From positions 14,774 through 78,773 of the forward strand of contig WQVC01000001.1 of the NCBI GenBank assembly GCA_009781765.1: a DNA stretch of 64,000 bases, in the 5' to 3' direction. Source of the stretch: Defluviitaleaceae bacterium (GTDB lineage Bacteria; Bacillota; Clostridia; Lachnospirales; WQUN01). Under the pieces are notes generated by a model, which saw only the letters and a program-made list of their open reading frames with translations, was not told the DNA's origin and did not search any database. This document shows positions 1,675-51,557 of this stretch, in pieces (within the stretch, counting starts at the first letter, position 1; each line of letters opens with the position of its first letter). The position numbers and the translations under genes were made by a program.

Positions 1675-1819
1675 GACCTCGGGACTCCGCCCCGAACCCC
1701 CGCGAACTTTTTGGAAAAAGTTCGACAAAAACTTAAAAATCGCGCGTTCGCGCGATTTTATGACAAAGTTTTGATGAAACTTTTTCAAAAGTTTCCGGGG
1801 TGCGGGGCGGAGCCCCGCG
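1675..1819. repeat. family A modular palindromic element, copy A1 (intergenic)
   Basis: Consecutive hairpins: CGAACTTTTTGGAAAAAGTTCG, AATCGCGCGTTCGCGCGATT, GAAACTTTTTCAAAAGTTTC, GCGGGGCGGAGCCCCGC. Near-identical to 5074-5212 and 48114-48258. Confidence 0.9.
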
Positions 1820-1854
1820 ATTTTATGATAAAATTGCGATGAGGAGCGCGAAGC

Positions 1855-2836: not shown

Positions 2837-4896
2837 TCGAGTCGTTCCGCCTCAACAATTTGCCAAATTAAATCGGTGCTTTGCGCAACAATGCGGAAAG
2901 ACTCGCGGAAATATTGCAAATCCGCGCCTTCGCCCGCCGTCCAAAGAACCTCAACAACGGCAAGATAATAAAATTTGTGGTCTGTTTCGGAGGCTTCCGA
3001 GTCGTAAACCGACACGACTTCCAAATCGCCGGTTGCAATATTAACCGCATACATCGCGCGTCCCTCAAACCGCGCGGGTGCGAAAAAGCTCAGCAATTCG
3101 CTGTCGTTCGAAACCCCTACAAGATTCTCGCGCGAAAGTTCGCCCGATTTGTACTCCAAAAGCGAAAGAAATGTTTCGGTTACGGCACGTTCCGCCTCGT
3201 AACGGCGAAGTCGCGGCATATTGTTGAAGCGTGTAACATTCACCGGCACAACCACCGACGGCAACTCAAAATCCAAAGAATTTACAACAAAATAATACTC
3301 TGAAATATGAACATCGCGCAAACGCATAAGGTAGGGCTGCATGTTAAAAATCACGTCTGTGCCGCGCACATACACATTTGTGCGCCCCGGCATGGAAATC
3401 GACTCGCCGTCTGTGCGTACATTAAGCGAAATATCAAGATTCATCGGAACGCGACGCCCGCCTTCGTTCAAAGCGTGCATTGTCATGTAAACGCGACTGC
3501 CCTGCTGCATCATGCCCTCGAAATTCAGCGTAAAATCGCCGACCGGCACGGGAATCGGGTTCCATTGGTCGTTACCGAAAAGCTGCGACGGCGCGATTTT
3601 TACAACCGGTTCCGACATAAAATACGACAGCCCGCTGAAATGCACTTCAACGTCACTTTCGATGTTCAAAATCGGCCCGAAAGTTACCGAACCCATCAGC
3701 AAATCAAACTCTTCGAAGTAAACAACAGCATTTTCGTTCGTGAGCGGGGTGATGGCATTCACGGAAAAACGCTCGAAAAGTCGCACAAACGGCTCATCCT
3801 CCGGCATGTTAAGGCGTACGCCCGCTTCCGAGCCCGGCGTATAGCTGAAATGGATTGTGCTGCTTCCGCTGTCGAAAACGGCGTGACGAATTTGCAACCC
3901 GCCTTCGCCCATGGCATATATCGGATGATTTACAAACGCCGGCCCTTCGTGAATCGGCGGCGATGTAAAACGATAGTTAAACTGCGCATAATCGTGAGTA
4001 TCGCGGCACTGTATATGAAGCGTCAGAAACAACGTTCCGGCAGTAAGTTGCCCGAACCGCAAAACAGTTCCGCTTCCTTCCGATGCAGCTATGTCAAAAG
4101 ATGTGCGCGAATACAAATGCCGCGCCTGATTGTACAGCAGGATGTAATAATCGTCGGGATTAAAATGTTCATCGAAATAAAAAAACGTGCCGGAATACGC
4201 CGCAACCATCCGCGTAAGCGTAAACTGCGTTTCTTCATTTAAGTGCGTCCGCTCGTTCAAGAAGATGTTGCGGGCGTTATTTGCGGTATCCGCAGGGATT
4301 TCAATCGGCGTAAATCTGTCAAACGCGGCAATTTGCTCGTTTTGCGCATTAACCATGCCCGACGCCACAATCGCCGTTGCCGCCCCGACCACGATTATAA
4401 ATACGCCGACAAAAAACGTCGCCGCTATTTTCCAACCCGCCATGTTAGCAAAAAGTTTTTCCCCGCCTTCATTTTCGAGCGAGAATGAACCCTTCACATA
4501 CCGCACCGCGCCCAACCCGTCAACCTCCGGGTCGTAAACCTGCGTTGCCGGCGACACCGACAAATCCCGTACTTCGAAACCGGCGTCGGCGGATTTATCT
4601 GCCATAAGCAACATTTCAAGCTGCGCGTCCAAGTCCATGTCGTCACTTGACTGCATGGGCGACGGCGCAGACGACGGCGAATCGTCGTCGTCGAAATTAA
4701 AGCTCGCGAACGGGTCGGAATCATCGCTGTCGAAATTGAAGCTCGCGAACGGGTCGGAATCGTCGTCCCCGTCGGAAAAAATCCCGAGGGACGACAACTG
4801 CGCCTCTAAGTCGTCAAGACTGTCCATGCCTTCCAAGTCGCCCGAAGCACCGGTGTCGTCGTCATTTGTATTCAAATTATCCAAATCGTCGTTCAT
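2833..4896 (-). CDS. hypothetical single-pass membrane protein with an acidic repeat N-terminus
   Basis: 687 aa. GGGAGG RBS 7 nt before the ATG. The D/S-rich N-terminal ~110 aa contains a duplicated SDDSDPFASFNFD, followed by one TM (IAATFFVGVFIIVVGAATAIVA) and a ~500 aa domain I do not recognise. Confidence 0.75.
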   Translation of the reverse strand: MNDDLDNLNTNDDDTGASGDLEGMDSLDDLEAQLSSLGIFSDGDDDSDPFASFNFDSDDSDPFASFNFDDDDSPSSAPSPMQSSDDMDLDAQLEMLLMADKSADAGFEVRDLSVSPATQVYDPEVDGLGAVRYVKGSFSLENEGGEKLFANMAGWKIAATFFVGVFIIVVGAATAIVASGMVNAQNEQIAAFDRFTPIEIPADTANNARNIFLNERTHLNEETQFTLTRMVAAYSGTFFYFDEHFNPDDYYILLYNQARHLYSRTSFDIAASEGSGTVLRFGQLTAGTLFLTLHIQCRDTHDYAQFNYRFTSPPIHEGPAFVNHPIYAMGEGGLQIRHAVFDSGSSTIHFSYTPGSEAGVRLNMPEDEPFVRLFERFSVNAITPLTNENAVVYFEEFDLLMGSVTFGPILNIESDVEVHFSGLSYFMSEPVVKIAPSQLFGNDQWNPIPVPVGDFTLNFEGMMQQGSRVYMTMHALNEGGRRVPMNLDISLNVRTDGESISMPGRTNVYVRGTDVIFNMQPYLMRLRDVHISEYYFVVNSLDFELPSVVVPVNVTRFNNMPRLRRYEAERAVTETFLSLLEYKSGELSRENLVGVSNDSELLSFFAPARFEGRAMYAVNIATGDLEVVSVYDSEASETDHKFYYLAVVEVLWTAGEGADLQYFRESFRIVAQSTDLIWQIVEAERLE
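4691..4768. repeat. 2 x 39 nt in-frame tandem repeat within the 687-aa ORF
   Basis: TCGAAATTRAAGCTCGCGAACGGGTCGGAATC.. occurs twice and encodes DDSDPFASFNFD twice. Confidence 0.9.
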
Positions 4897-4911
4897 TTCG
4901 AAGCCTCCCTG

Positions 4912-5028: not shown

Positions 5029-5073
5029 TTTATCATACCTCCGAAAAAATTTCATCAGATTTAAATGTTTATT

Positions 5074-5212
5074 CGGGGCTTCGCCCCAGACCCCACGAAC
5101 TTTTTGAAAAAAGTTCGACAAAAACTTCATTAAAATCGCGCGACGCGCGATTTTTGATTAAGTTTTGATGAAACTTTTTCAAAAGTTTCCGGGGTGCGGG
5201 GCAGAGCCCCGC
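5074..5212. repeat. family A palindromic element, copy A2 (intergenic)
   Basis: CGGGGCTTCGCCCC, then CGAACTTTTTGAAAAAAGTTCG, AATCGCGCGACGCGCGATT, GAAACTTTTTCAAAAGTTTC and GCGGGGCAGAGCCCCGC. Confidence 0.9.
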
Positions 5213-5229
5213 AGTTTCAATCGAATATT

Positions 5230-20377: not shown

Positions 20378-20630
20378 GGGGGGCGTCGCCCCCTCTCACG
20401 CGCTGCGCGCGTTGGCCGGGCGGCCTCGCTGACGCGACCCGACTTCGCCGGGGGACAGCCCAAGCCCCCACCCGCTTTTTAAAGGGTGGCGCGGGAAACG
20501 TTCGCTTCGCTCACTGCGCCCTCTAAAAGCGGGGCAAAAATTATTAAAAAATCGCGCAAAGCGCGATTTTAATAAAGTTTTTGTCGAACTTTTTTCAAAA
20601 AGTTCGTGGGGTGCGGGGCGAAGCCCTGCG
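20378..20630. repeat. composite palindromic element A3 (family A modules plus family B core)
   Basis: GGGGGGCGTCGCCCCC, ACGCGCTGCGCGCGT, GGGAAACGTTCGCTTCGCTCACTG (B core), AATCGCGCAAAGCGCGATT, CGAACTTTTTTCAAAAAGTTCG. Confidence 0.85.
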
Positions 20631-20696
20631 GTTTTGATGTTCATTCGCGATATGATATACTTAGGGAGTGTGGATTATTTTTATGAGGTGGGGCTT

Positions 20697-23903: not shown

Positions 23904-24039
23904 GAGGGCTCCGCCCTCAAACTCCCGCAAGGGGACTATGTCCCCTTGACCCCGTCAAAGAATCGCGCGAATGCGCGATTCTTGTTAAATTTTACTTTTT
24001 TTAAAAAGTTCGCCGGGTACGGGGCTGAGTCCCGCGAAC
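23904..24039. repeat. family A variant element, copy A4 (intergenic)
   Basis: GAGGGCTCCGCCCTC, GGGGACTATGTCCCC, AATCGCGCGAATGCGCGATT, ACTTTTTTTTAAAAAGT. Confidence 0.8.
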
Positions 24040-24058: not shown

Positions 24059-27000
24059 GTGCAAATTCAATTTATTCTCGGCGGTCCCGGAACGGGAAAA
24101 TCTACATATGTTTTGCAGGAAATGTGTCGCGCGGTGCAATCGGATTTCGCCGCGCCGTTGTATTATCTTGTTCCCGAGCAGTTTTCGTTGCAGTCGGAAC
24201 GGCTTTTGCTCGAAGCGGAAAACGGTCGTGCGGCAACAACTCGCGTGCAGGTGCTGAGCTTTAATCGGCTCGCGCATCGGCTTTTTTCCGTACTCGGCGG
24301 TTTGCCGGGAAAACACGCCGACGATTTGGGCAAACAAATGCTTCTTCGCAAAGTTATTTTCGAGGTGGCGGGCGAAACGGAATTTTACAAAAGCGCGACG
24401 GACAAGCAGGGTTTTGTTTCGGAACTCGGCAGAACAATCACGGAGCTGAACCATTATCGCGTGAGCGCGGCGGATTTGCGCGACCGCGCGGCGGACTCGA
24501 CTCCGGCGTTTGCGGCAAAATTACGCGATATTGCCACGATTTTACAAAAATATCGCGAGGCCGTTACCGGGCGGCACATTCTCACCGACGACATGCCGGA
24601 AATCCTTTGCAACAGGCTTGCCGAGCTGCCCCCCGGCGAAAGTTTTCCGCTTTTGGACGGCGCGATGTTTTGGATTGACGGATTTTCCGGCTTCACCCCG
24701 CAAGAGCGACACGTTTTGCAACACATTTTAAAACGCGCCGAAAAAATCACTCTGACGCTCACCCTCAAAGATGAAATCTCCCGCGCACCGCGCGACACAA
24801 TCGAAAAAATCGAGACATTCGCACATTCCCTCCGCGCGCAAATTCTCCCGCACATACACATGAAGGAAAATTTTCGCCACGTAAACGCGCCGGGGCTTCG
24901 ATATTTTGTTAATAATTTTGGGCTTCGCCCCCCGCACCCCAATATCCCCTTGACCCCTACAGAGAAACCGCGCGAAGCGCGGTTTCTCAATAAAAGTTTT
25001 TTTGAAGGGGGCTTGGGGGAAACTTTTTTTTCAAAAAAAGTTTCCCCCAAAGAAAACATAGAAATCATATCATCAGCGGATAAATACGGCGGAGTTTATG
25101 CGGCCGCGCACAGTGTTTTGCGGCTGCGGGAGAAAGGTTATCGTTTCAGAGACATTGCGATTTTGTGCGGCGACCGCGAGCAATATGAAAAAATTTTGCA
25201 AACTGTTTTCGACCGCGAAAAAATTCCCGTTTTCGTTGATACGGAAATTGATATTTTGTCGCATCCGCTTACCGAATTGATTCGTGCCGCGCTGGATATT
25301 TTTGTGAAAAATTGGAGCATCGAAAGCGTGTTTCGCTTTTTAAAAACGGGGCTTGCCGGCGCAGACAGGGATACCATTGATATTTTAGAAAATTACGCGC
25401 TTGCAAACGGCATAAACTCGTATCGGTGGCGATACGAATTCCACGACGAAATTGCCGAAGCCGGGCGCGAAATACTGCTTCGCGGGCTTGCGCCGCTTAC
25501 ATCGAAAAAACCAAATCAATCGGTAGAGCAGTTACCAATTGAAAGCGATTCCCGCAGCGCGATTGGTTTTTGCAAATCTTCCGACACGGTTAAAAATTAC
25601 TCGAAACGTGTTTTTGATATGCTGTTCGGGCTGAATGTTCCCGAAACTTTGCAAAGTTGGTTCGACACGCACATGCTTTCCGGCGACCCGCAAACAGCGC
25701 GTATTCACGGGCAAATTTGGCCGAAAATTTGCGAGGTCTTTGATAAATTGGTCGAAATTTTGGGCGACGAAAAAGTCGAGCTGAAAACTTTTGCGGCAAC
25801 CCTCGACGCAGGATTTGTACAAGTCGGGTTGGGGCGTATTCCGCCGACCCTTGACCAAGTTGTTTTAGGCGATATTGCGCGTTCGCGTTATCCGCAAATC
25901 AAGGCGATGATTGTGCTTGGCGCGAACGACGGCGTTTTGCTGCCCACGCCGACACAATCCGGATTGTTCACCGACCACGAACGCAAATTGCTGAACAATT
26001 CCGGGATAAATGCTAAACCCGGTCGATTTGAAGTCGCGCCGGAAAACGCCGTTCGAATCAGCGAGCAAACATATAATTTGTTCTGCGCGCTTTCGCAACC
26101 GAGCGAAAAACTCATCTTGATTTACTCGGCGGGCGAAGCCGGAAAACCGTTGCGCCCGTCGCCGATTGTAAAGAAAATTCAAGCGTTGTTCCCGGGGCTT
26201 GAAACAACGCCCGCTCCCCTCCCCTCCGAGGACGCGGCCGATATGAGCGTGTTTTTCGCGCCGGTGAGGCTGTCGTCGCCTAACACCGCCGGAAGCACAA
26301 TTTTCACCGCCGCAACGCGCCTCGAAGCCTTTGCGCGTTGTCCGTTTGCGTACTATATGGATTATCTTTTGCGCGTTCGTCCGCGAAAATATTTTGAAGT
26401 TTTGCCGGCCGACCTCGGCAAACTCTTTCACGAGGTCATTGCAGATTTCACGAAACGTGGAAATTTCGACGCAACGCGGGACGAAATTAACGCCGAAGTT
26501 AATGCTCTTGTTGACGCGCTCGACCTCGAAAATTCGATTTTTTACAGCTCGGCGCGAAACAAATATGTATTGGATAAAGTGCGGCGCGTTGCGGCAGCGT
26601 CGTGTCACGCGCTTTGTCGCCAAATAAAAAACGGGCAGTATCGCCCGGGAATGACAGAACAGGAAATTTTGCACAACATCGCCCTCAACGACGGACGAAT
26701 GCTGTCGCTTTCCGGCCGCGTTGACCGCGTGGATTTTTCCGACACAAATCAAATTCGCATAGTGGATTACAAATCCGGCGCGACGAAATTTTCCCCCGAC
26801 GAAGCGTTAAAAGGCGTACAATTGCAGCTCGTTTTGTACATGAACGCGCTTTTAAAATCGCGCCCGAACAGCACGCCCGGCGGAATTTTTTATTTCCCGG
26901 TCGGCGACCCGATTATCGACACGAACGAAATTCTGCCCGACGTAATGCGCGAGGATGCCATTTTCAAAGCGTTTAAAATGTCCGGCATGGAAGCCGACGA

Positions 27001-27163
27001 CCCCGTCGCGTTCACAAATTTCGGCGCAGAGGTTGAAAACAGCGTGAAAGAACTCGGCATACGCATGTTCGACGGCGACATTTCCGCCCGTCCGTGGAGT
27101 ACAAAAAAAAGCCCCTGCGACTATTGCAATTTCGACGGGGTTTGCGGCGGATGCACCGGCTGA
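24059..27163 (+). CDS. addB: helicase-exonuclease AddAB, subunit AddB
   Basis: GTG start after an AAAGGAAG RBS. GGPGTGKST Walker A. C-terminal nuclease/Fe-S region (RLEAFARCPFAYY, DYKSG, CDYCNFDGVCG). Confidence 0.88.
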   Translation: MQIQFILGGPGTGKSTYVLQEMCRAVQSDFAAPLYYLVPEQFSLQSERLLLEAENGRAATTRVQVLSFNRLAHRLFSVLGGLPGKHADDLGKQMLLRKVIFEVAGETEFYKSATDKQGFVSELGRTITELNHYRVSAADLRDRAADSTPAFAAKLRDIATILQKYREAVTGRHILTDDMPEILCNRLAELPPGESFPLLDGAMFWIDGFSGFTPQERHVLQHILKRAEKITLTLTLKDEISRAPRDTIEKIETFAHSLRAQILPHIHMKENFRHVNAPGLRYFVNNFGLRPPHPNIPLTPTEKPREARFLNKSFFEGGLGETFFSKKVSPKENIEIISSADKYGGVYAAAHSVLRLREKGYRFRDIAILCGDREQYEKILQTVFDREKIPVFVDTEIDILSHPLTELIRAALDIFVKNWSIESVFRFLKTGLAGADRDTIDILENYALANGINSYRWRYEFHDEIAEAGREILLRGLAPLTSKKPNQSVEQLPIESDSRSAIGFCKSSDTVKNYSKRVFDMLFGLNVPETLQSWFDTHMLSGDPQTARIHGQIWPKICEVFDKLVEILGDEKVELKTFAATLDAGFVQVGLGRIPPTLDQVVLGDIARSRYPQIKAMIVLGANDGVLLPTPTQSGLFTDHERKLLNNSGINAKPGRFEVAPENAVRISEQTYNLFCALSQPSEKLILIYSAGEAGKPLRPSPIVKKIQALFPGLETTPAPLPSEDAADMSVFFAPVRLSSPNTAGSTIFTAATRLEAFARCPFAYYMDYLLRVRPRKYFEVLPADLGKLFHEVIADFTKRGNFDATRDEINAEVNALVDALDLENSIFYSSARNKYVLDKVRRVAAASCHALCRQIKNGQYRPGMTEQEILHNIALNDGRMLSLSGRVDRVDFSDTNQIRIVDYKSGATKFSPDEALKGVQLQLVLYMNALLKSRPNSTPGGIFYFPVGDPIIDTNEILPDVMREDAIFKAFKMSGMEADDPVAFTNFGAEVENSVKELGIRMFDGDISARPWSTKKSPCDYCNFDGVCGGCTG
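24920..25048. repeat. family A element, copy A5, in frame inside addB
   Basis: GGGCTTCGCCCC, AAACCGCGCGAAGCGCGGTTT, GGGGGAAACTTTTTTTTCAAAAAAAGTTTCCCCC. Translated as GLRPPHPNIPLTPTEKPREARFLNKSFFEGGLGETFFSKKVSP. Confidence 0.85.
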
Positions 27164-32074: not shown

Positions 32075-32155
32075 GGGGGAGAAACTTTTTTGTAAAAAAA
32101 GTTTCTCCCTCTCTTTTTCAAAAAATTTTAAAAAGCCGCGCTTTGCGCGGTTTTT
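32075..32155. repeat. family A element, short copy A6 (intergenic)
   Basis: GGGGGAGAAACTTTTTTGTAAAAAAAGTTTCTCCC and AAAAGCCGCGCTTTGCGCGGTTTTT. Confidence 0.8.
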
Positions 32156-32171
32156 CTGTAGGGATGGAAAC

Positions 32172-37540: not shown

Positions 37541-39952
37541 TCACGCTCTCACAAGCCGCGCTAAACCCGACATAAACTTTTTTTGCCCCGCGCCCGGAAA
37601 CTGCACGGTTACTTCATAATCCGCGCCGGCCGGCGTGATTTCAAGAACTTTGCCCACGCCGTATTTAATATGCTTCACATTGTCGCCGGCGGAAAAATCG
37701 GGCGGCGCGACTTTTGTTGAAAATGTTTTTTTTGCCGGGGGAACTTTTGAAAAAGTTCCCCCGGCGCCCCCCTCAAAACTTTTCTTGAAAGACCGCGCTT
37801 CGCGCGGTTTTTCTGCCGAAGCCGACCCGGCCGCTCCGCGATGCCCGGATTCACGGGGGGCAATGCTCCAACTTTTACCGGAAACCTCGCGAAGCGAGGT
37901 TTCCCTGAAGGGGTCAAGGGGACGAGTCCCCTTGTGGGGGTTCGGGGGCTGGTCGTCCGCCTGTCGGCGGACTGCTCGCCCATGCATCCCGGGCGAAGCC
38001 CCTGAGGCCTTAACGTTGCGAGCCTCGCCGTACATATTAACGGAAGTGATGCAAGTCGCCGGTACGTCGTCGAGAAAGCGGCTTGTTTTGTTGCGGGCGA
38101 TGTGGTCGAAGCGGCGACGCGAAATCGCGTGGGTGAGATAGAGGATTCGGCGGGCGCGAGTGAAGCCGACGTAGCATAATCGGCGTTCTTCCTCCATTTC
38201 CGAGGGAGTTTGGGCGTCGATTGAACGGGATGTGGGGAAAATATATTCCTCAAAGCCCACCATGAACACCACGTTAAATTCAAGCCCCTTCGCGCTGTGA
38301 AGGGTCATTAACGCTGCGGCGTCGGCGTTTTCGTCATAATTGTCCACGTCGGCAACGAGGGCAACATCTTCGAGAAATTTGCCCAAAGATGTGTCGTCGG
38401 ATTCGTTTTCGAAGGCGCGAGCTTTGGCGAGAAGCTCCTTGAGATTCTGCTCGCGCTCCGCGCCCTCGGGCGTACCGTCCTGAATTGTGCGGATGTAGTC
38501 GGTGTCGTGCAGAATTTTTTCGATAAGCGCGAGAACGCTGTTTTCGGCGGAAAATGCGGCGCATTCGTCCAGATATTCGGCGAATTGTTTGGCGGGCGCG
38601 GCTTTTTTGCCCAAATCGTGTATTTCGGAGGCGCGGGCAAGCGCCTGCGAGAAGGTGAGTTCGTTTTCTGCCGCGAACGCCTGAATTTTTGCGATTGACG
38701 CGCTGCCGATTCCGCGCTTCGGTACGTTTATTACGCGAAGGTGGGAAATATCGTCGGCGGGATTGTTGATTGCCTTGAGATACGCCAGCATGTCCTTGAT
38801 TTCCATGTGTTCATAGAAGCGTACACCGCTGAAAATGCGGTACGGAATGCCGCCGGTTACGAATTGGTCTTCGACGGCGCGCGACTGTGCGTTTGTTCGA
38901 TAAAGCACGGCGAAATCGCTGTAACGCGCCCCTTCGCGAATGCCGCGCGCAATCATTTGCGCAACAAAGTAGCCCTCGTCGCGCTCGTCGCGGGCGGTGT
39001 AAATGCGAATCGGGCCGCCGCGAGCATTTTCCGTCCACAAACGCTTTGCGGTTCGTTCTTCGTTATGAATAATTACGGCGTTCGCCGCGTCGAGAATTGT
39101 TGAGGTTGAACGATAATTTTGCTCCAATTTGATTACTTTCGCGCCGGGATAATCCTTTTCGAATCGCAAAATATTTTTTATATCCGCGCCGCGCCAACCG
39201 TAAATACTTTGGTCGTCGTCGCCCACAACGCACAAATTTTGCGCGTAACCCGAAAGATGCCGCACAAGTTCGTATTGCGCGTGGTTTGTGTCCTGATATT
39301 CGTCAACCATTACGTAACGAAAGCGATTTTGATATTTTTCGCGTATGTGTTCGTGTTGGGCGAAGAGTTCGGCAGTTTTGAAAATAATGTCGTCGAAGTC
39401 GAGGGCATTGCTGTTTTTCAGGCGTTTTTGATAAAGCGCGTAAACGTCGGCGATATTGCTTTCGCGAAAACTTCCCGCGACCATGCGTTCGTATTCCGCC
39501 GGCGAAATCAGCTCGTTTTTCTGCGCCGAAATTACTTGCGCAACATATCGCGGCGGATAATTTGTATCGCTCAAATTTTGCTCTTTGATGCATTCTTTTA
39601 TGAGACGCAGAGTGTCGGCTGTGTCATAAATCGAAAAGCCCGTTTTGTAGCCCAAATATTCAATTTCGCGCCGCAAAATTCGCGTACACGCCGCGTGAAA
39701 CGTGCTTACCCACACCTGCTCGCCGAGCGACGTTTTCGCGCTGATTCGCTCGCGCATTTCCCGCGCCGCCTTGTTCGTAAAGGTAATCGCAATAATATGA
39801 TACGGGTCAACCCCCGTTTCAATCAGCCGCGCAACACGATATGTAAGCACGCGCGTTTTTCCGCTGCCCGCCCCCGCGAAAATTAACAGCGGCCCTTCAA
39901 GATGCATTGCCGCCTCACGTTGGGCGGGATTAAGCTCGTCCAAATAATTCAT
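37541..39952 (-). CDS. pcrA: ATP-dependent DNA helicase PcrA with ~80-95 aa repeat-derived insert before the C-terminal domain
   Basis: LNPAQREAA, AGAGSGKT, DEYQDTN, VGDDDQSIYGWRGA, TLHSAKGLEF, and YVGFTRAR. I moved the start to the ATG at 39952. Confidence 0.92.
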   Translation of the reverse strand: MNYLDELNPAQREAAMHLEGPLLIFAGAGSGKTRVLTYRVARLIETGVDPYHIIAITFTNKAAREMRERISAKTSLGEQVWVSTFHAACTRILRREIEYLGYKTGFSIYDTADTLRLIKECIKEQNLSDTNYPPRYVAQVISAQKNELISPAEYERMVAGSFRESNIADVYALYQKRLKNSNALDFDDIIFKTAELFAQHEHIREKYQNRFRYVMVDEYQDTNHAQYELVRHLSGYAQNLCVVGDDDQSIYGWRGADIKNILRFEKDYPGAKVIKLEQNYRSTSTILDAANAVIIHNEERTAKRLWTENARGGPIRIYTARDERDEGYFVAQMIARGIREGARYSDFAVLYRTNAQSRAVEDQFVTGGIPYRIFSGVRFYEHMEIKDMLAYLKAINNPADDISHLRVINVPKRGIGSASIAKIQAFAAENELTFSQALARASEIHDLGKKAAPAKQFAEYLDECAAFSAENSVLALIEKILHDTDYIRTIQDGTPEGAEREQNLKELLAKARAFENESDDTSLGKFLEDVALVADVDNYDENADAAALMTLHSAKGLEFNVVFMVGFEEYIFPTSRSIDAQTPSEMEEERRLCYVGFTRARRILYLTHAISRRRFDHIARNKTSRFLDDVPATCITSVNMYGEARNVKASGASPGMHGRAVRRQADDQPPNPHKGTRPLDPFRETSLREVSGKSWSIAPRESGHRGAAGSASAEKPREARSFKKSFEGGAGGTFSKVPPAKKTFSTKVAPPDFSAGDNVKHIKYGVGKVLEITPAGADYEVTVQFPGAGQKKFMSGLARLVRA
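37733..37971. repeat. family A composite element A8, in frame inside pcrA
   Basis: GGGGGAACTTTTGAAAAAGTTCCCCC, GACCGCGCTTCGCGCGGTT, GGAAACCTCGCGAAGCGAGGTTTCC, GGGGACGAGTCCCC, GTCCGCCTGTCGGCGGAC. Confidence 0.85.
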
Positions 39953-40153
39953 AAGGGTCAACTCCTTTGCGCAGAATATTATACCGGGTTTCGCGAAAAA
40001 TTTGCGGCGAAAAATTTTTTCAAAAGTTTCCAAGGGTTCGAGGTAACGCCCCCGAGAACTTAAAAAATTAACTCCCACAAATCTGCACTTGCTAAATCGC
40101 GCATAATATGTTGTAATTCTTTCCGGTACGTTATAAAAGAAGGTGCGGATTTC

Positions 40154-42561: not shown

Positions 42562-42733
42562 GAGACCTCGGACTCCGCCCAAACCCTCTCGCGTACTGCG
42601 TACGCCGGGCGGACGGGAAGTTGGGTTGGGTCGGAAACTTTTGAAAGAGTTTCATCAAAAAAACCGCGCGAATGCGCGGTTTTTTTGTGCTTCGGGGCTG
42701 CACGATTCCGGGAAAAATCCCCGTCACGGGGGC
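42562..42733. repeat. family A variant element, copy A9
   Basis: GAGACCTCGGACTCCGCCC (as in A1), GAAACTTTTGAAAGAGTTTC, AAACCGCGCGAATGCGCGGTTT. Confidence 0.75.
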
Positions 42734-47165: not shown

Positions 47166-48086
47166 TCAGGGCGTCTTCAAATTTGCCAAATCATACGGCG
47201 TTTCCTGATATACATAGTAGTTGAGCCAGTTTGCGAAAAGCAAATGTGCATGAGCGCGCCACCGCATTTCGGGAGGATTGTTCGGGTCGTCGTCGCGATA
47301 GTAGTTGATTGGCGGGCGAACATCCAATCCCTTTTCCGTATCGCGGCGATATTCCGCATCAAGCGTGTTAATGTCGTATTCCGCATGGCCGACGATAAAA
47401 ACTTGGCGACGGTCTTTGCTTGCGGCAATGTACAATCCGGCGTGCGACGACGTTGAAAGCGACGAAAGCCCCGCCGCGATAATATCTTTTTCGCGCACAC
47501 CGGTGTATCGCGAGTGCGGCGCGAAAAAAGGATTATCAAAGCCTCGAGTCAGGCGGCTTGTGGGAATAAGTACATTGTGGCGATAAACGCCGGACAACTT
47601 TTCCGGCAGAACATATTTATCCACTCCGTAATGATAAAAAAGCCCCGCCTGCGCCCCCCAACAAATATGAAAAGTGCTGTAAACATGCGTTTTCGACCAC
47701 TCCATAACGCGGCAAAGTTCGTCCCAATAGTCAACCTCTTTGAAGTCCAACAGCTCGACCGGCGCACCCGTTATAATAAGTCCGTCGAGAACGGTTTCCC
47801 GGATGTCGTCGAAAGTATGGTAAAACTCCTCAAGATGCTCACGCGACGTATTTTTCGAAACATGCGACGACATTTGAATCAACACCGGTTCAACCTGAAG
47901 CGGCGTGTTTGAAAGCATTCGCAAAAGCTGCGTTTCCGTTTCGATTTTTTTCGGCATAAGATTAACGATACCGATTTTCAGCGGACGAATATCCTGTTCT
48001 TTTGCGCGCTGCTCCGTCATCACAAAAATATTTTCAGAACCCAACGTTCGCGTGGCGGGCAAACTCGCCGGCATTTTTACAGGCAT
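47166..48086 (-). CDS. metA: homoserine O-acyltransferase (MetA family)
   Basis: MPVKMPASLPA N-terminus, RPLKIGIVNLMPKK, and FHICWGAQA. Confidence 0.92.
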   Translation of the reverse strand: MPVKMPASLPATRTLGSENIFVMTEQRAKEQDIRPLKIGIVNLMPKKIETETQLLRMLSNTPLQVEPVLIQMSSHVSKNTSREHLEEFYHTFDDIRETVLDGLIITGAPVELLDFKEVDYWDELCRVMEWSKTHVYSTFHICWGAQAGLFYHYGVDKYVLPEKLSGVYRHNVLIPTSRLTRGFDNPFFAPHSRYTGVREKDIIAAGLSSLSTSSHAGLYIAASKDRRQVFIVGHAEYDINTLDAEYRRDTEKGLDVRPPINYYRDDDPNNPPEMRWRAHAHLLFANWLNYYVYQETPYDLANLKTP

Positions 48087-48113
48087 AATTATTTTCCTTT
48101 CTCGTTATACTGT

Positions 48114-48258
48114 TGGGGGGGCTTCGCCCCCAAACCCCCACGAACTTTTTGAAAAAAGTTCGACAAAAACTTTATTAAAAAACGCGCTTTGCGCGTTTTT
48201 TATTTAAGTTTTGATGAAACTTTTTCAAAAGTTTCCGGGGTGCGGGGCGGAGCCCCGC
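48114..48258. repeat. family A palindromic element, copy A10 (intergenic)
   Basis: GGGGGGGCTTCGCCCCC, CGAACTTTTTGAAAAAAGTTCG, AACGCGCTTTGCGCGTT, GAAACTTTTTCAAAAGTTTC, GCGGGGCGGAGCCCCGC. Confidence 0.9.
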
Positions 48259-48279
48259 GATTTTTATTTTATCTGAACA

Positions 48280-50748
48280 TTAACTCCACTTTGTTTTGAA
48301 CGAAACCTTGCCGTCAATTATGTCACCGCGAACCTTATCGCCCTCGCGGAAGCGACCTTCGAGAATTGCTTCGGCGAGTTCATCTTCGACTTTCGTTTGA
48401 ATCGCGCGACGAAGCGGGCGCGCGCCGTAGCTTTGGTCATAACCTTCGCGTGCGATAAATTCGACAAGTTCGTCGGTGTAAATGAGGTCGATGTCCATGT
48501 TTTTGCGAATGCGCTCGGCGGTTTCCGTGAGCATGAGGCGTGTGATTTGCTGTACGTCTTCGTCGGAAAGCGGGTGGAACACGATTATGTCGTCGATGCG
48601 GTTGATAAACTCCGGGCGGAAAATATTTTTGACTTCCTCCATGACGAGCTTTTTCATGTCGTCATAATCGCGTTCTTTGTCGTCGTTGCCGACGAAGCCG
48701 AGTTTTTTCGGGTTGACGATGGAACGCGCACCGGCGTTCGATGTCATAATTATTACGGAATTTTTGAAACTGATTTTGCGCCCCTGCGAGTCGGTGACGT
48801 GGCCGTCGTCGAGAACTTGCAGGAGAATGTTAAATACGTCGGGGTGGGCTTTTTCGATTTCGTCGAAAAGGATGACAGAGTACGGCTTGCGACGAACGCG
48901 CTCGGAAAGTTGACCGCCTTCGTCGTAGCCGACATATCCGGGAGGCGAGCCGATGAGTTTTGAAGCGTTGTGTTTTTCCATGTACTCGGACATGTCTACG
49001 CGGATGATTGCATTTTCGTCGCCGAATAAAATTTCCGCAAGGGCGCGGCAAAGATGCGTTTTTCCGACACCGGTAGGCCCGAGAAACAAAAACGAGCCGA
49101 TGGGACGATTGGGGCTTTTAAGCCCTACGCGCCCGCGCCGGATTGCTTTCGAAACGGTTTTGACCGCGGCATCCTGCCCGATAACGCGCTTGTGAATCGT
49201 GTCTTCCATTTTCATAAGGCGCGCGGATTCTTCCTGCTGCATTTTTTTTACGGGAATGCCCGTTGTTGCCGCCAAAACGTCAGCGATTTCGTCGCCGTTT
49301 ACAATGTGGTGCGATTTTGTGTGGGTATCTTTCCAGTCTTTTTCTTCTTTTTCGAGGCGTTCCTTGAGGGCGGATTGACGCTGTTTTAAAATTCCCGCCA
49401 TTTCAAACGCTTCGGATTTGATGGCTTCTTCTTTTTCGGCTTCAAGCTCGTTAATTTGTTCGTTGAGATGTTTGATATTCGGCGGGGCGGTGTACGAACG
49501 CAGGCGCACTTTCGAGGCGGTTTCGTCCAGAAGGTCGATTGCTTTGTCGGGCAAAAATCGGTCGGAGATGTAGCGCGAACTTAATTGCACCGCCGCAATA
49601 ACGGCATCGTCGGTGATTTGTACGTTGTGGTGCGCTTCGTATTTATCGCGAATGCCCTTGAGAATTTCGATGGCTTCTTCCTCGGTGGGTTCGTCGATTA
49701 AAACGGGTTGGAAGCGGCGTTCGAGGGCGGCGTCTTTTTCGATGTGCTTGCGGTATTCGTCAAGCGTCGTCGCGCCGATTACCTGCATTTCTCCGCGAGC
49801 AAGAGCGGGCTTGAGAATATTCGCCGCGTCAAGCGCACCCTCCGCGCCGCCCGCGCCGATAAGCGTGTGAAGCTCGTCGATGAAGAGAATCACGTTTGTG
49901 TTTGTTCGGACTTCCTGCATGACTTTTTTGATGCGCTCTTCGAACTCGCCGCGATATTTCGTGCCGGCAACCATGCCGGATAAATCAAGCCCGATTACGC
50001 GCTTATCCTTGACGGGCTCGGGGACGTCGCCGGATACAATGCGCTGTGCAAGCCCTTCGGCGATTGCAGTTTTTCCGACGCCGGGGTCGCCGACGAGGCA
50101 GGGATTATTTTTTGTGCGGCGGGATAAAATTTGTATGACGCGCTCGGTTTCTTTTGCGCGACCGACAATCGGGTCGAAGTGACTTTCTTTTGCCATTTTG
50201 GTAAAGTCGCGCGAAAACTTGTCCAGCACAGGCGTGGTTGATTTTGCGTTTTTCGTGCCGCTGCCGGGGCTGATTGGAAACGGAAACGGCGGCATTCCGT
50301 GTTGATTCGCCTCGCCGAGCATTTGCATAATATCATCGAACATTTTTTGCGGATTTGCATTCAACGCCGTTAAAATTGTGTGCGAAAGCGAGTCGGTTTC
50401 TTTTAACAGCGCGATTAAGAGATGTTCCGTGCCGACATAATTTGTTTTCATGCGCAGAGCTTCCTGATGGCTGTTTGCGATTACGCGCTTTAAACGCGGC
50501 GTAAGGTCAACAAGTCCGCTTCCCACCGTCGGCGGTGAACCCGTGTTTCCGACACGCTCAAGTTCTTTCATTATATCTTCCGCCGTTACGCCCTGCATTT
50601 CAAGTGCTTTTGACGCAACGCTGTTTTCCACACGAGCAAGCCCCAGTAATAAATGTTCTGTTCCGCCGTGGGAAACGCCTGTTTCTTTCGCCGCGTTTTG
50701 CGCGTGTTGAATTGCAAGTTTGGCTTTTTCAGTAAAAGGCCCCTTCAT
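48280..50748 (-). CDS. clpC: ATP-dependent Clp protease ATP-binding subunit ClpC
   Basis: 822 aa. Clp N-domain repeats, two AAA+ modules ([16 protein letters not shown]), and a UVR-like linker. Confidence 0.93.
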
Positions 50749-50849
50749 TTTTTTCGCCCCTCTTTATATAAGTATGCATAGATTCTTACCGGATTTTATG
50801 TGATGTAAAACAGTTTATGAGTTTGATATGTTAATGTCAAACAACAGCA

Positions 50850-50986
50850 GGGCTTTGCCCCGCACCCCACGAACTTTTTTGGAAAAAAGTTCGACAAAAA
50901 ACTCAAAAATCGCGCATTGCGCGATTTTAATTAAAGTTTTTGCCCCGCTTTTTTCAAAAAGCGGGTGGGGTTTGGGGCGAAGCCCC
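50850..50986. repeat. family A palindromic element, copy A11 (intergenic)
   Basis: GGGCTTTGCCCC, CGAACTTTTTTGGAAAAAAGTTCG, AATCGCGCATTGCGCGATT, CCCGCTTTTTTCAAAAAGCGGG, GGGGCGAAGCCCC. Confidence 0.9.
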
Positions 50987-51056
50987 GAAAGTTGTAGTGT
51001 AATGAAATCGCCGGTCGTACGTATACCCTTATGAAAACCTTTGCAAGGGGAAGAAA

Positions 51057-51557
51057 ATGAGTGCTGAAATTCTCGACGCGCTGTATCGTGCGCATTATAA
51101 AAACGTGTACAACTACATTTGCTTTCGCATAAATAACCATTTCGATGCGGAAGATTTGGCGTGTACGGTTTTTGAAAAAGCAATGCGTTCGCGGTACGAT
51201 GCGGCGCGACCCGGCGAAGCGTGGCTGATTGCGATTGCAAAAAACGCAGTAAACGATTACTTACGTGCGCGCGGTCGGCGGAGCTTTGTTGGGCTTGATG
51301 CGATTTTCAGCCTTGTTTCCGAAAAAAAACAACCTGACGAGGTTGTTGTGCAAAACGAACAAAATCATGCGTTAATCGCCGCAATGTCGCGCCTCAAAGA
51401 CCGCGAGCGGCAAATTCTTTCCCTAAAATTCGCAACCGACCTTAAACATGACGAAATCGCAAAAATTATGCACATAAGTTCGTCGAATGTCGGCGCGATT
51501 GTTCACAGGGCGTTGAAGAAATTAAAAAATTTTTTGGAGGATGACGATGGACGATAA
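51057..51557 (+). CDS. ECF-type RNA polymerase sigma factor
   Basis: 166 aa. Region 2 (YNYICFRI..DAEDLACTVFEKA) and region 4 (ERQILSLKF..HDEIAKIMHISSSNVGAIVHRALKKL). Confidence 0.85.
   Translation: MSAEILDALYRAHYKNVYNYICFRINNHFDAEDLACTVFEKAMRSRYDAARPGEAWLIAIAKNAVNDYLRARGRRSFVGLDAIFSLVSEKKQPDEVVVQNEQNHALIAAMSRLKDRERQILSLKFATDLKHDEIAKIMHISSSNVGAIVHRALKKLKNFLEDDDGR

Follow-up and report, generated by a model that had tools for sequence, protein, structure and literature searches.

A clpC-like gene in the genome of a Defluviitaleaceae bacterium is flanked on both sides by copies of a modular hairpin repeat, which we call family A and which is the subject of this analysis. The focal copy occupies positions 48114-48258 of a 64,000-nt stretch of contig WQVC01000001.1 (the window, taken at its full length), while the copy on the other side of the clpC-like gene lies in the spacer that separates it from a gene of the sigma-70 family. 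Two further full copies are present in the window, and all four contain the five hairpins that a preliminary description, made from the sequence alone, had quoted for them. Using a profile built from these four copies, nhmmer recovered them at E values from 1e-46 to 1e-39, together with two clear partial matches and five weak matches at the level of single modules (E 3e-4 to 1e-6). The at least 11 copies that had been counted in the 64 kb are accordingly better described as four full copies, two clear partial ones and about five fragments, the last seen as weak matches only. When its fold was compared with those of shuffled sequences, the focal copy gave a z-score of -9.6 as RNA and -8.9 as DNA.

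The same profile was run against the source genome of the window, a metagenome-assembled genome (MAG) of 2.94 Mb with 49.5% GC, 154 contigs and a completeness of 94%. This search returned 664 matches, which merged into 352 loci spread over 113 of the 154 contigs and amounting to 1.3% of the genome. About 110 of these loci are full-length, covering at least 120 of the 145 profile positions. Therefore, family A is not a local duplication, a possibility for which the preliminary description had allowed.

Alignment of about 100 full copies revealed an overall two-fold symmetry. From the outside inward, each side consists of a GC hairpin (T1; consensus GGGGC-TTC-GCCCC plus two or three variable outer pairs), a C-run linker (ACCCCA), an AT hairpin (H2; consensus xxxxx-CTTTTT-GA-AAAAAG-xxxxx) and a second linker, RCAAAAACTT, leading to a central hairpin (H3; core AAAATCGCGCG..CGCGCGATTTT), beyond which the same order returns as a mirror image. 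Read outward from the centre, an arm runs through the linker GTTTTTG, H2, a G-run termed R3, three nucleotides and T1. It is this arm of about 60 nt, rather than the 140-nt whole, that forms the building block. In an arm profile search of the source genome, which gave 448 matches, neighbouring arms all had T1 pointing outward, with 121 head-to-head ('+-') pairs and not one tail-to-tail ('-+') pair. Solo arms numbered 157, and among the 70 best-scoring of them nearly all still have H3 next to them; beyond H3, the inspected arms are followed by a variant type of arm, by a different repeat family or by DNA that is unique. The arrangement is always arm-H3-arm or arm-H3, with the T1 end away from H3. 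Similarly, 293 of the 315 H3-type hairpins of the genome fall within a family A locus or next to one, and H3 is nearly identical in sequence at about 290 sites with arms alongside, which argues that it is part of the repeat and not an independently evolved terminator. Many copies carry optional further outer modules (for example RGGTYTTAA, GAAAATTGATT and CGCGACAAACGCATGAA...), and on many arms the outer consensus ends in YTTAA. Thus, of the modular element of about 140 nt that had been proposed, the modularity stands, with modules that assort independently, and the unit gives way to the arm. The hairpins had been recognised correctly; what the preliminary description lacked were the two-fold arm-centre-arm grammar, the terminator-like centre, the strand asymmetry and the mirror-repeated third segment, the last two of which are set out below.

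Pairing was counted on a 60-copy alignment, with shuffled and slid alignments as controls. In the five local hairpins 98.7% of cells are paired, as compared to a shuffled mean of 90.0%, and none of 500 shuffles reaches the observed value. Changes on both sides were found at 16 pairs (214 cells), and every slid control was far lower. Each small hairpin is kept by compensatory change, which bears out the earlier proposal of a structure-constrained repeat. For one long arm-to-arm hairpin, 86.4% of cells are paired against a shuffled mean of 87.8%, a value that all 500 shuffles reach, and no compensatory change between the arms was detected in this alignment outside of H3. Such a hairpin, of REPIN or cruciform type, is the minimum-free-energy RNA fold of the focal copy, yet it is rejected by the covariation. 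Since the local hairpins covary and arm-to-arm pairing fails, each module is a hairpin in its own right, and the left and the right arm are separate draws from a pool of alleles. In all, 152 T1 stem alleles were counted among 294 arms. In the left H2 the inner CTTTTT/AAAAAG is constant, while the outer 4-5 bp are variable yet complementary; the H2 stems of the source genome are CGAAC, CCCGC, GAAAC and CAAAC, and further stems, CCAGC, CCAAC, CCGAC and CCCAC, occur in other genomes, the 3' half being complementary in every case. The earlier statement that stems vary while palindromes are kept is therefore right for H2 and T1, and wrong for the CG hairpin offered as its example, in which the loop varies and not the stem. 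The allele CGAAC..GTTCG resembles a LexA (Cheo) box, in which the spacing is 4 nt; here it is 12 nt and the motif is absent from the other H2 alleles, and this candidate was rejected.

The imperfect T1 stems show a pronounced strand preference. Read on the inward strand (from T1 towards H2), mismatches among the 294 stems comprise 79 A.C and only 7 G.T, and the former correspond to G.T (G.U) wobbles on the outward strand. For example, GGGGC/GCCCC and GGGAC/GTCCC are both common at the loop-proximal pair, and the intermediates between them include 23 with an outward-strand wobble and none of the other kind (binomial 2e-7). Wobble intermediates are tolerated only on the strand that runs from the centre outward, and a compensatory path through this wobble implies that, in each arm, one particular strand folds in single-stranded form. 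These folded strands lie on opposite DNA strands in the two arms of an element, so that no single transcript bears both.

A further regularity resides in the linker between H2 and T1, the third segment of the arm, which repeats the G/C run of T1. The two runs match in length in 202 of 239 arms (r = 0.78), and the spacer between R3 and T1 is 3 nt long in 288 of 296. In other genomes the third segment changes along with T1, GGAGGC/GCCTCC being accompanied by ACCTCC and GAGAGC/GCTCTC by ACTCTC. Asymmetric T1 alleles were used to distinguish a mirror repeat from a direct one. Arms with GGG(G)AC as T1 have AGGG(G) as their outward R3 in 39 of 46 cases in the source genome and in 13 of 14 in other genomes, whereas arms in which T1 is GGGGC show this R3 in only 17 of 239 and 3 of 52 cases, respectively (Fisher 2e-27 and 4e-10). 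Where T1 is GAGGGC, R3 is GGGAG in all four such arms of the source genome, including the one at 23906-23936 of the window, and in one of two elsewhere. The G.T intermediates keep R3 as GGGG (0 of 28 with A), and R3 therefore follows the purine strand and not the pyrimidine strand. The third segment is a mirror repeat of the T1 stem run; the direct-repeat reading was rejected on the asymmetric alleles.

Table. Family A in the window: modules of the focal copy, followed by the other copies and fragments. Where two ranges are given, they are those of the preliminary description and of nhmmer.
Feature	Position	Strand	Basis or observation
Focal full copy	48114-48258; nhmmer 48115-48261		sequence and profile search
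T1 left, GC hairpin TTGGGGGGGCTTCGCCCCCAA with 3-nt loop, outer end of left arm	48113-48133		helix 95% paired in 60 copies
Third segment of left arm (ACCCCCA), mirror copy of the T1 G/C run	48134-48140		run length tracks T1
H2 left, AT hairpin CGAACTTTTTGAAAAAAGTTCG	48141-48162		100% paired; 3 pairs changed on both sides
Left linker ACAAAAACTTTAT, with conserved RCAAAAAC	48163-48175		alignment; adjoins H2 also in a pattern scan of public genomes
H3, central hairpin TAAAAAACGCGCTTTGCGCGTTTTTTA: A-tract, GC stem, T-tract	48176-48202		99% paired
Right linker (TTTAAGTTTTGAT), mirror of left linker	48203-48215		sequence, alignment
H2 right GAAACTTTTTCAAAAGTTTC, stem allele unlike H2 left	48216-48235		helix 4: 5 pairs changed on both sides; arm-to-arm pairing fails
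Third segment of right arm (CGGGGT), equal to R3 on the outward strand	48236-48241	+	
T1 right GCGGGGCGGAGCCCCGC then ATTTTTATTT, terminator-like when read outward	48242-48258	+	first-listed terminator-like site; G.T wobbles confined to outward strand
Full copy between divergent ORFs	1675-1819; nhmmer 1677-1822		sequence and profile search
Full copy; orthologous spacer in congener G002 lacks it	5074-5212; nhmmer 5072-5215		sequence, profile search and comparison with G002
Full copy	50850-50986; nhmmer 50845-50990		between clpC-like gene (48280-50748, -) and sigma-70-family gene (51057-51557, +)
Composite copy	20378-20632		left H2 (CCCGC...GCGGG) with family-B module in its loop (about 20480-20530), then H3 and right arm 20563-20637; clear partial/composite match 20524-20632, E 6e-27
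Variant copy	23904-24039		T1 = TGAGGGCTCCGCCCTCA, mirrored third segment ACTCCC; clear partial match 23957-24037, E 6e-12
Variant copy, place of H2	within 23904-24039		GC-type hairpin CAAGGGGAC..GTCCCCTTG instead of H2; H3 and right arm next
In-frame intragenic copy	24919-25044		weak match; within 1034-aa ORF 24059-27163
Fragment: merged T1/H2-type hairpin and H3 (AAAAAGCCGCGCTTTGCGCGGTTTTT)	32083-32160		weak match; sequence and profile search
Intragenic fragment	37739-37812		weak match; within ORF 37541-40078
Arm match	39999-40067		weak match; nhmmer
Fragment: H2-like hairpin and H3 (AAAAAACCGCGCGAATGCGCGGTTTTTT)	42632-42685		weak match; sequence and profile search

Other repeats are found in contact with family A. 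A family-B module (GGCGCGGGAAACGYTCGCTTCGCTCACTGCGCC) sits exactly in the loop of H2 (window 20480-20530; contig C126, about 4717-4897) or in that of H3 (C93, about 3585), suggesting that other repeat families insert at the apices of hairpins. Another repeat of about 100 nt, TAGTGAGTCAAGTTGAAAACGGTCTTTCGCGCTTGCGCGAAAAGAACGGTTTCAATTTGAC...CCCCCGACACGAGTGCTTTTGCGCAAGCAAAAGTGCGAGTG, occurs at least eight times directly after arm-H3 units of the source genome, and was located beside solo arms at C115:512, C1:4067, C7:34898, C36:11649, C8:29495 and C7:36372. In addition, some copies of family A are enclosed by an outer inverted pair, CGCGACAAACGCATGAAyA..AAAAyC / ..TTATTCATGCGTTTGTCGCG (C77:11164, C26:28798, C83:4340, C123:2302 and C8:20321), and such composites are thus layered like an onion.

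Comparison with congeners showed one site both filled and empty. The genes on either side of the 5074-5212 copy are adjacent in G002, where a 13-nt AT-rich spacer is all that separates them, and this spacer aligns to both flanks of the copy in the source genome. One possible target-site duplication, AT-rich and 11-13 nt long, can be proposed from this single empty/filled pair; the ends of copies are heterogeneous, with several alternative outer modules. In the spacer between mcsB and clpC different composites were found in G003 and G005, and none in G007. In these three congeners clpC directly follows mcsB whether or not the spacer contains a repeat (G003, L015; G007, L016; G005, L017), while the neighbours of clpC differ in the source genome and in G002, so that clpC synteny is broken within the genus. 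In G001 a different, tandem-like repeat (AATCCGCGAAAATCCGTTAAATCCGCGAAAATCCGCGTTCCAT...), which is not family A, fills the spacer upstream of clpC (L018, contig G001:C10). The DNA sequencing runs in which the window is represented come from termite-gut metagenomes. Their Logan contigs stop at each copy, where the summed word depth exceeds that of the flanks about 1000 times, and no empty sites were seen in these contigs, which break at the element. Family A therefore breaks short-read assemblies. Within the source genome, the search for paralogous empty sites found only composite repeat arrays, and a look-up of exact proteins for strain variants matched only the assembly of the window itself.

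The repeat is widely but patchily distributed. BLAST and an arm covariance model place it in six to seven of nine congeners, and the covariance model carries this repeat, which the preliminary description knew from the window alone, into 42 of 201 genomes of the order, belonging to 27 of 133 genera and at least 12 families, and into four genomes of other orders in a 351-genome sample of the class. Closely related species lack family A altogether. Its carriers include near-complete genomes with few contigs as well as rumen and gut MAGs; among the former are G134, G151 and G211 of the same order, each in 10-20 contigs and with between 4 and 19 scored arms. Among the public-genome pattern matches listed are uncultured Ruminococcus (rumen RUG MAGs), Oscillospiraceae, Faecalibacterium sp. 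MAGs, Eubacteriales and termite Defluviitaleaceae MAGs (labels as given by NCBI); also among them are a single H2 with the CAAAAAC linker and complementary outer stems in an Aminicenantes MAG (L029), Omnitrophota (L056), members of the candidate phyla radiation (L060, L062) and a proteobacterium (L034). These copies in distant phyla are on long contigs, some with GCCTCCGGCGGC ahead instead of T1, and could reflect horizontal transfer or convergence. Four phage contigs of IMG/VR (L151, L153, L154 and L164) carry complete arms, in which T1 differs (TTGAGAGCGTTGCTCTCAA) and the third segment, ACTCTCA, matches it, and phages are a possible vehicle between hosts. Some arm stretches of 53 nt are identical between species in which ClpC is only 83-92% identical, pointing either to turnover under sequence-specific constraint or to horizontal spread.

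The positions of family A relative to genes were also examined in the source genome. Copies occupy 70 of 382 convergent, 147 of 1592 tandem and 36 of 401 divergent spacers, and hence 18% of convergent spacers as compared to 9% of tandem or divergent ones (convergent versus tandem, odds ratio 2.2, p = 2e-6). With respect to genes, solo arms favour neither orientation. A total of 27 loci lie deep inside long ORFs, and 46 further 'intragenic' calls are artefacts of 5' ORF extension. Copies of family A give rise to spurious ORFs and introduce peptide-like insertions into housekeeping proteins, which matters for the annotation of gut Clostridia. A terminator scan flagged H3 on the plus strand in the focal copy and on the minus strand in the 50850-50986 copy, as well as T1 read outward (TGCGGGGCGGAGCCCCGCG then ATTTTTATTT). 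Judged by its A-tract, GC stem and T-tract, H3 is a bidirectional, intrinsic-terminator-like hairpin; family A probably also acts as a terminator, and probably sets transcript ends. The same scan flagged a small hairpin, TGGCGGGCAAACTCGCCG then GCATTTTTAC, at 48053-48070 of the window, inside the 5' end of the opposite-strand ORF 47166-48086; this one is probably due to chance.

No transposase of the RAYT (REP-associated tyrosine transposase) type had been noticed in the window, and this absence extends to the whole genome. Indeed, the Y1_Tnp domain of RAYT and IS200 (PF01797) gave no match in the source genome or in the element-rich G002, G005, G019 (100% complete) and G021, while control genomes were positive. 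Across 40 relatives the presence of this domain does not track that of the element, and it is common in element-free genomes. A second candidate, the Rpn-like PD-(D/E)XK 'transposase' (PDDEXK_2, PF12784), was likewise rejected, being present in the element-poor G001 and the element-free G010 and absent from the element-rich G002, G021, G028 and G037. The source genome has 11 PDDEXK_2 matches, several at contig ends, and five copies of a 102-aa ORF with an XRE-type helix-turn-helix (HTH), mostly at contig ends; the contigs concerned are C15, C28, C21, C60, C79, C112, C40, C35 and C131. A search for an autonomous element flanked by arms found no second peak in the arm spacing of the source genome, and where arm pairs lie far apart, the ORFs that they enclose are housekeeping genes such as fmt, dnaA and der. 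Nor does this genome contain a multi-copy classical transposase, its multi-copy ORFs being only the XRE HTH protein, two serine recombinases and the Rpn-like genes.

From these data we consider it probable, though well short of certain, that family A constitutes a genuine mosaic repeat of a gut Clostridia lineage, high in copy number and non-autonomous, of the kind represented by repetitive extragenic palindromes and the mosaics that they build (REP/BIME) or by MITEs (miniature transposable elements with inverted repeats); it is, in short, a selfish-looking DNA repeat. Copies would spread and turn over by way of a single-stranded, hairpin-folded intermediate, either DNA or RNA, and a trans-acting enzyme other than a Y1/RAYT transposase would handle this intermediate. 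Once inserted, H3 and the outward-read T1 may terminate or insulate transcription at gene ends, which would explain the twofold excess in convergent spacers, and a minority of copies would land in frame inside genes. Several points weigh against this interpretation. Among the candidates searched in the source genome and its relatives there is no mobilising enzyme, and no clean target-site duplication or exact end could be defined among the copies compared. The source genome is a MAG in 154 contigs, and insertion sequences (ISs) and plasmids are often lost from such assemblies. The copies share ancestry, so that the counts of compensatory cells, like the Fisher and binomial p-values, make independent events look more numerous than they are. 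The spacer and intragenic figures rest on crude ORF calls, the 36 copies between divergent genes have no obvious use for a terminator, and the terminator function itself is read from sequence patterns.

Several other explanations start from the same observations. Family A might consist of bidirectional terminator or insulator cassettes that the host selects, since they end transcription and shield the 3' ends of mRNAs, and that pass from one gene end to another mainly through recombination or gene conversion and less through transposition. By its sequence H3 is a textbook bidirectional intrinsic terminator, the outward T1 has a T-rich tail, convergent spacers are enriched, and a wobble signature of G.U type is what selection at the RNA level gives. 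However, cassettes of this kind account poorly for the 27 copies inside ORFs and the 36 in divergent spacers, for the near-identity of H3, which is unexpected of independently evolved terminators, and for the complete absence of the family from closely related species; moreover, for an incoming transcript the wobble-tolerant strand lies downstream of H3 and not in the 3' untranslated region. We therefore regard host selection for termination as an unlikely origin of the repeat. If each copy were transcribed as a small structured RNA gene or a cis-regulatory RNA, this would be in keeping with the strong fold z-score and the strand-specific wobbles, but such RNAs would be expected neither inside ORFs nor without orientation bias relative to genes. 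The 'good' strands of the two arms are on opposite DNA strands, the alignment shows no conserved promoter and no Rfam family comes near threshold, and an RNA gene is in our judgement highly improbable.

The remaining alternatives assign the repeat to a familiar mobile class. An ordinary MITE, that is, a deletion derivative of a DDE-type IS with terminal inverted repeats and a target-site duplication that is moved in trans, would agree with the inverted-repeat layout, with the YTTAA at the outer end of many arms and with the 13-nt AT-rich stretch that is single in G002 and matched on both flanks of the 5074-5212 copy. We nevertheless think it very unlikely, given that the arm spacing shows no peak for a full-length element, that distant arm pairs enclose housekeeping genes, that the genome has no multi-copy transposase, that left and right arms assort independently, with solo arm-H3 units as common as pairs, and that the ends are heterogeneous with several alternative outer modules. 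A classical REP/BIME, the RAYT (Y1 HUH transposase) gene of which is merely missing from an incomplete MAG, would share the high copy number, the intergenic hairpins in alternating orientation and the strand-specific hairpin signature. In this case the distribution of PF01797, absent from five element-rich genomes and present in many element-free relatives, speaks to the contrary, as do the lack of a GTAG-type conserved tetranucleotide at the hairpin foot and the failure of the arms to form a REPIN hairpin, and we hold it for a very doubtful explanation.

A more specific and decidedly speculative idea, to which we would give only a small chance, builds on the mirror-repeated third segment. A mirror-repeated third block is a requirement for a purine-motif intrastrand triplex such as that of TM-ECO/PIT/BoxC (PMC4666352). 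By analogy, R3, the 3-nt turn and T1 on the outward strand might fold into a short triplex of this type, a Clostridia counterpart of TM-ECO/PIT. The arm would then be a module at the level of DNA and not of RNA, and a non-Y1 enzyme might recognise the hairpin-plus-triplex on single-stranded DNA and insert arms at both sides of terminator hairpins with two-fold symmetry, in an orientation that is fixed, so that arm-terminator-arm would represent two independent insertions. Two of the three spacer bases form covarying outer T1 pairs, and since they pair in the extended T1, the extended hairpin and the triplex cannot form simultaneously. If true, the idea would imply a new structure-guided mobilisation system found in many Clostridia of gut and rumen as well as in their phages. 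For experiments, the mirror-repeat block and the strand-specific wobbles offer two handles.

Family A is apparently undescribed. Full-text literature searches by keywords and core sequence strings, which were limited, found no description of it; Rfam returned nothing for family A at gathering or E-value thresholds, and from the window gave only two tRNAs, the best sub-threshold match reaching 29 bits against a cut-off of 90. Among known systems, the REP/BIME repeats of Enterobacteria and Pseudomonas with their RAYT (TnpA-REP; PMC2817692, PMC6006769) likewise comprise hundreds of intergenic imperfect palindromes that are assembled into mosaics of alternating orientation, have conserved linkers, are enriched at gene 3' ends and depend on one strand of the hairpin. 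Family A differs in having no RAYT gene and no GTAG-type foot motif; its conserved flanks are ACCCC(A) and RCAAAAAC, and GTAG does not occur in the 60-copy alignment. It differs also in its host, a member of the Clostridia, and in a unit of three kinds of hairpin that include a terminator-like centre, and, in contrast to REPINs, its arms do not pair into one long hairpin. Family A therefore separates REP-like behaviour from RAYT, and would call for another mobilising activity. With MITEs it shares terminal inverted repeats, its arms being inverted copies from one pool of modules, whereas a related autonomous IS with the same ends was not found in the source genome, a MAG that may have lost IS copies.

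The closest parallel to the third segment is provided by TM-ECO/PIT/BoxC (Holder et al. 2015, PMC4666352), in which a G/C-rich hairpin is likewise joined, across a 3-nt loop, to a third block that mirrors the purine arm, and which is also intergenic, often arranged as inverted pairs and patchy between close relatives. The consensus of TM-ECO/PIT is CCCTCNCCC-N3-6-GGGNGAGGG-N3-GGGNGAGGG (PMC4666352). Family A has a different sequence, blocks of 4-5 nt rather than 9 nt and the order R-R-Y rather than Y-R-R; its putative triplex block is one module of a larger element, and two of its spacer bases also pair in the outer stem of T1, competing with the triplex turn. The Rickettsia palindromic elements (RPEs) are palindromic repeats that are also found in frame inside protein-coding genes. 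The 27 deep intragenic loci of family A resemble them in this respect, but sequence and host are unrelated, and most copies of family A are intergenic and centred on a terminator-like hairpin. The BOX elements of pneumococci and the Correia elements of Neisseria are high-copy, non-autonomous repeats of about 100-200 nt, BOX being modular and Correia terminator- and promoter-active; the modules of BOX are not known to be self-palindromic one by one, and Correia elements have 26-bp terminal inverted repeats with a TA duplication. An arm-terminator-arm grammar or a mirror block like those of family A is not known from either of them. Finally, H3 has in common with bidirectional Rho-independent terminators its A-tract, GC stem and T-tract, and a terminator pattern on both strands, but differs from them in its near-identity at about 290 sites and in the repeat arms that lie alongside it.

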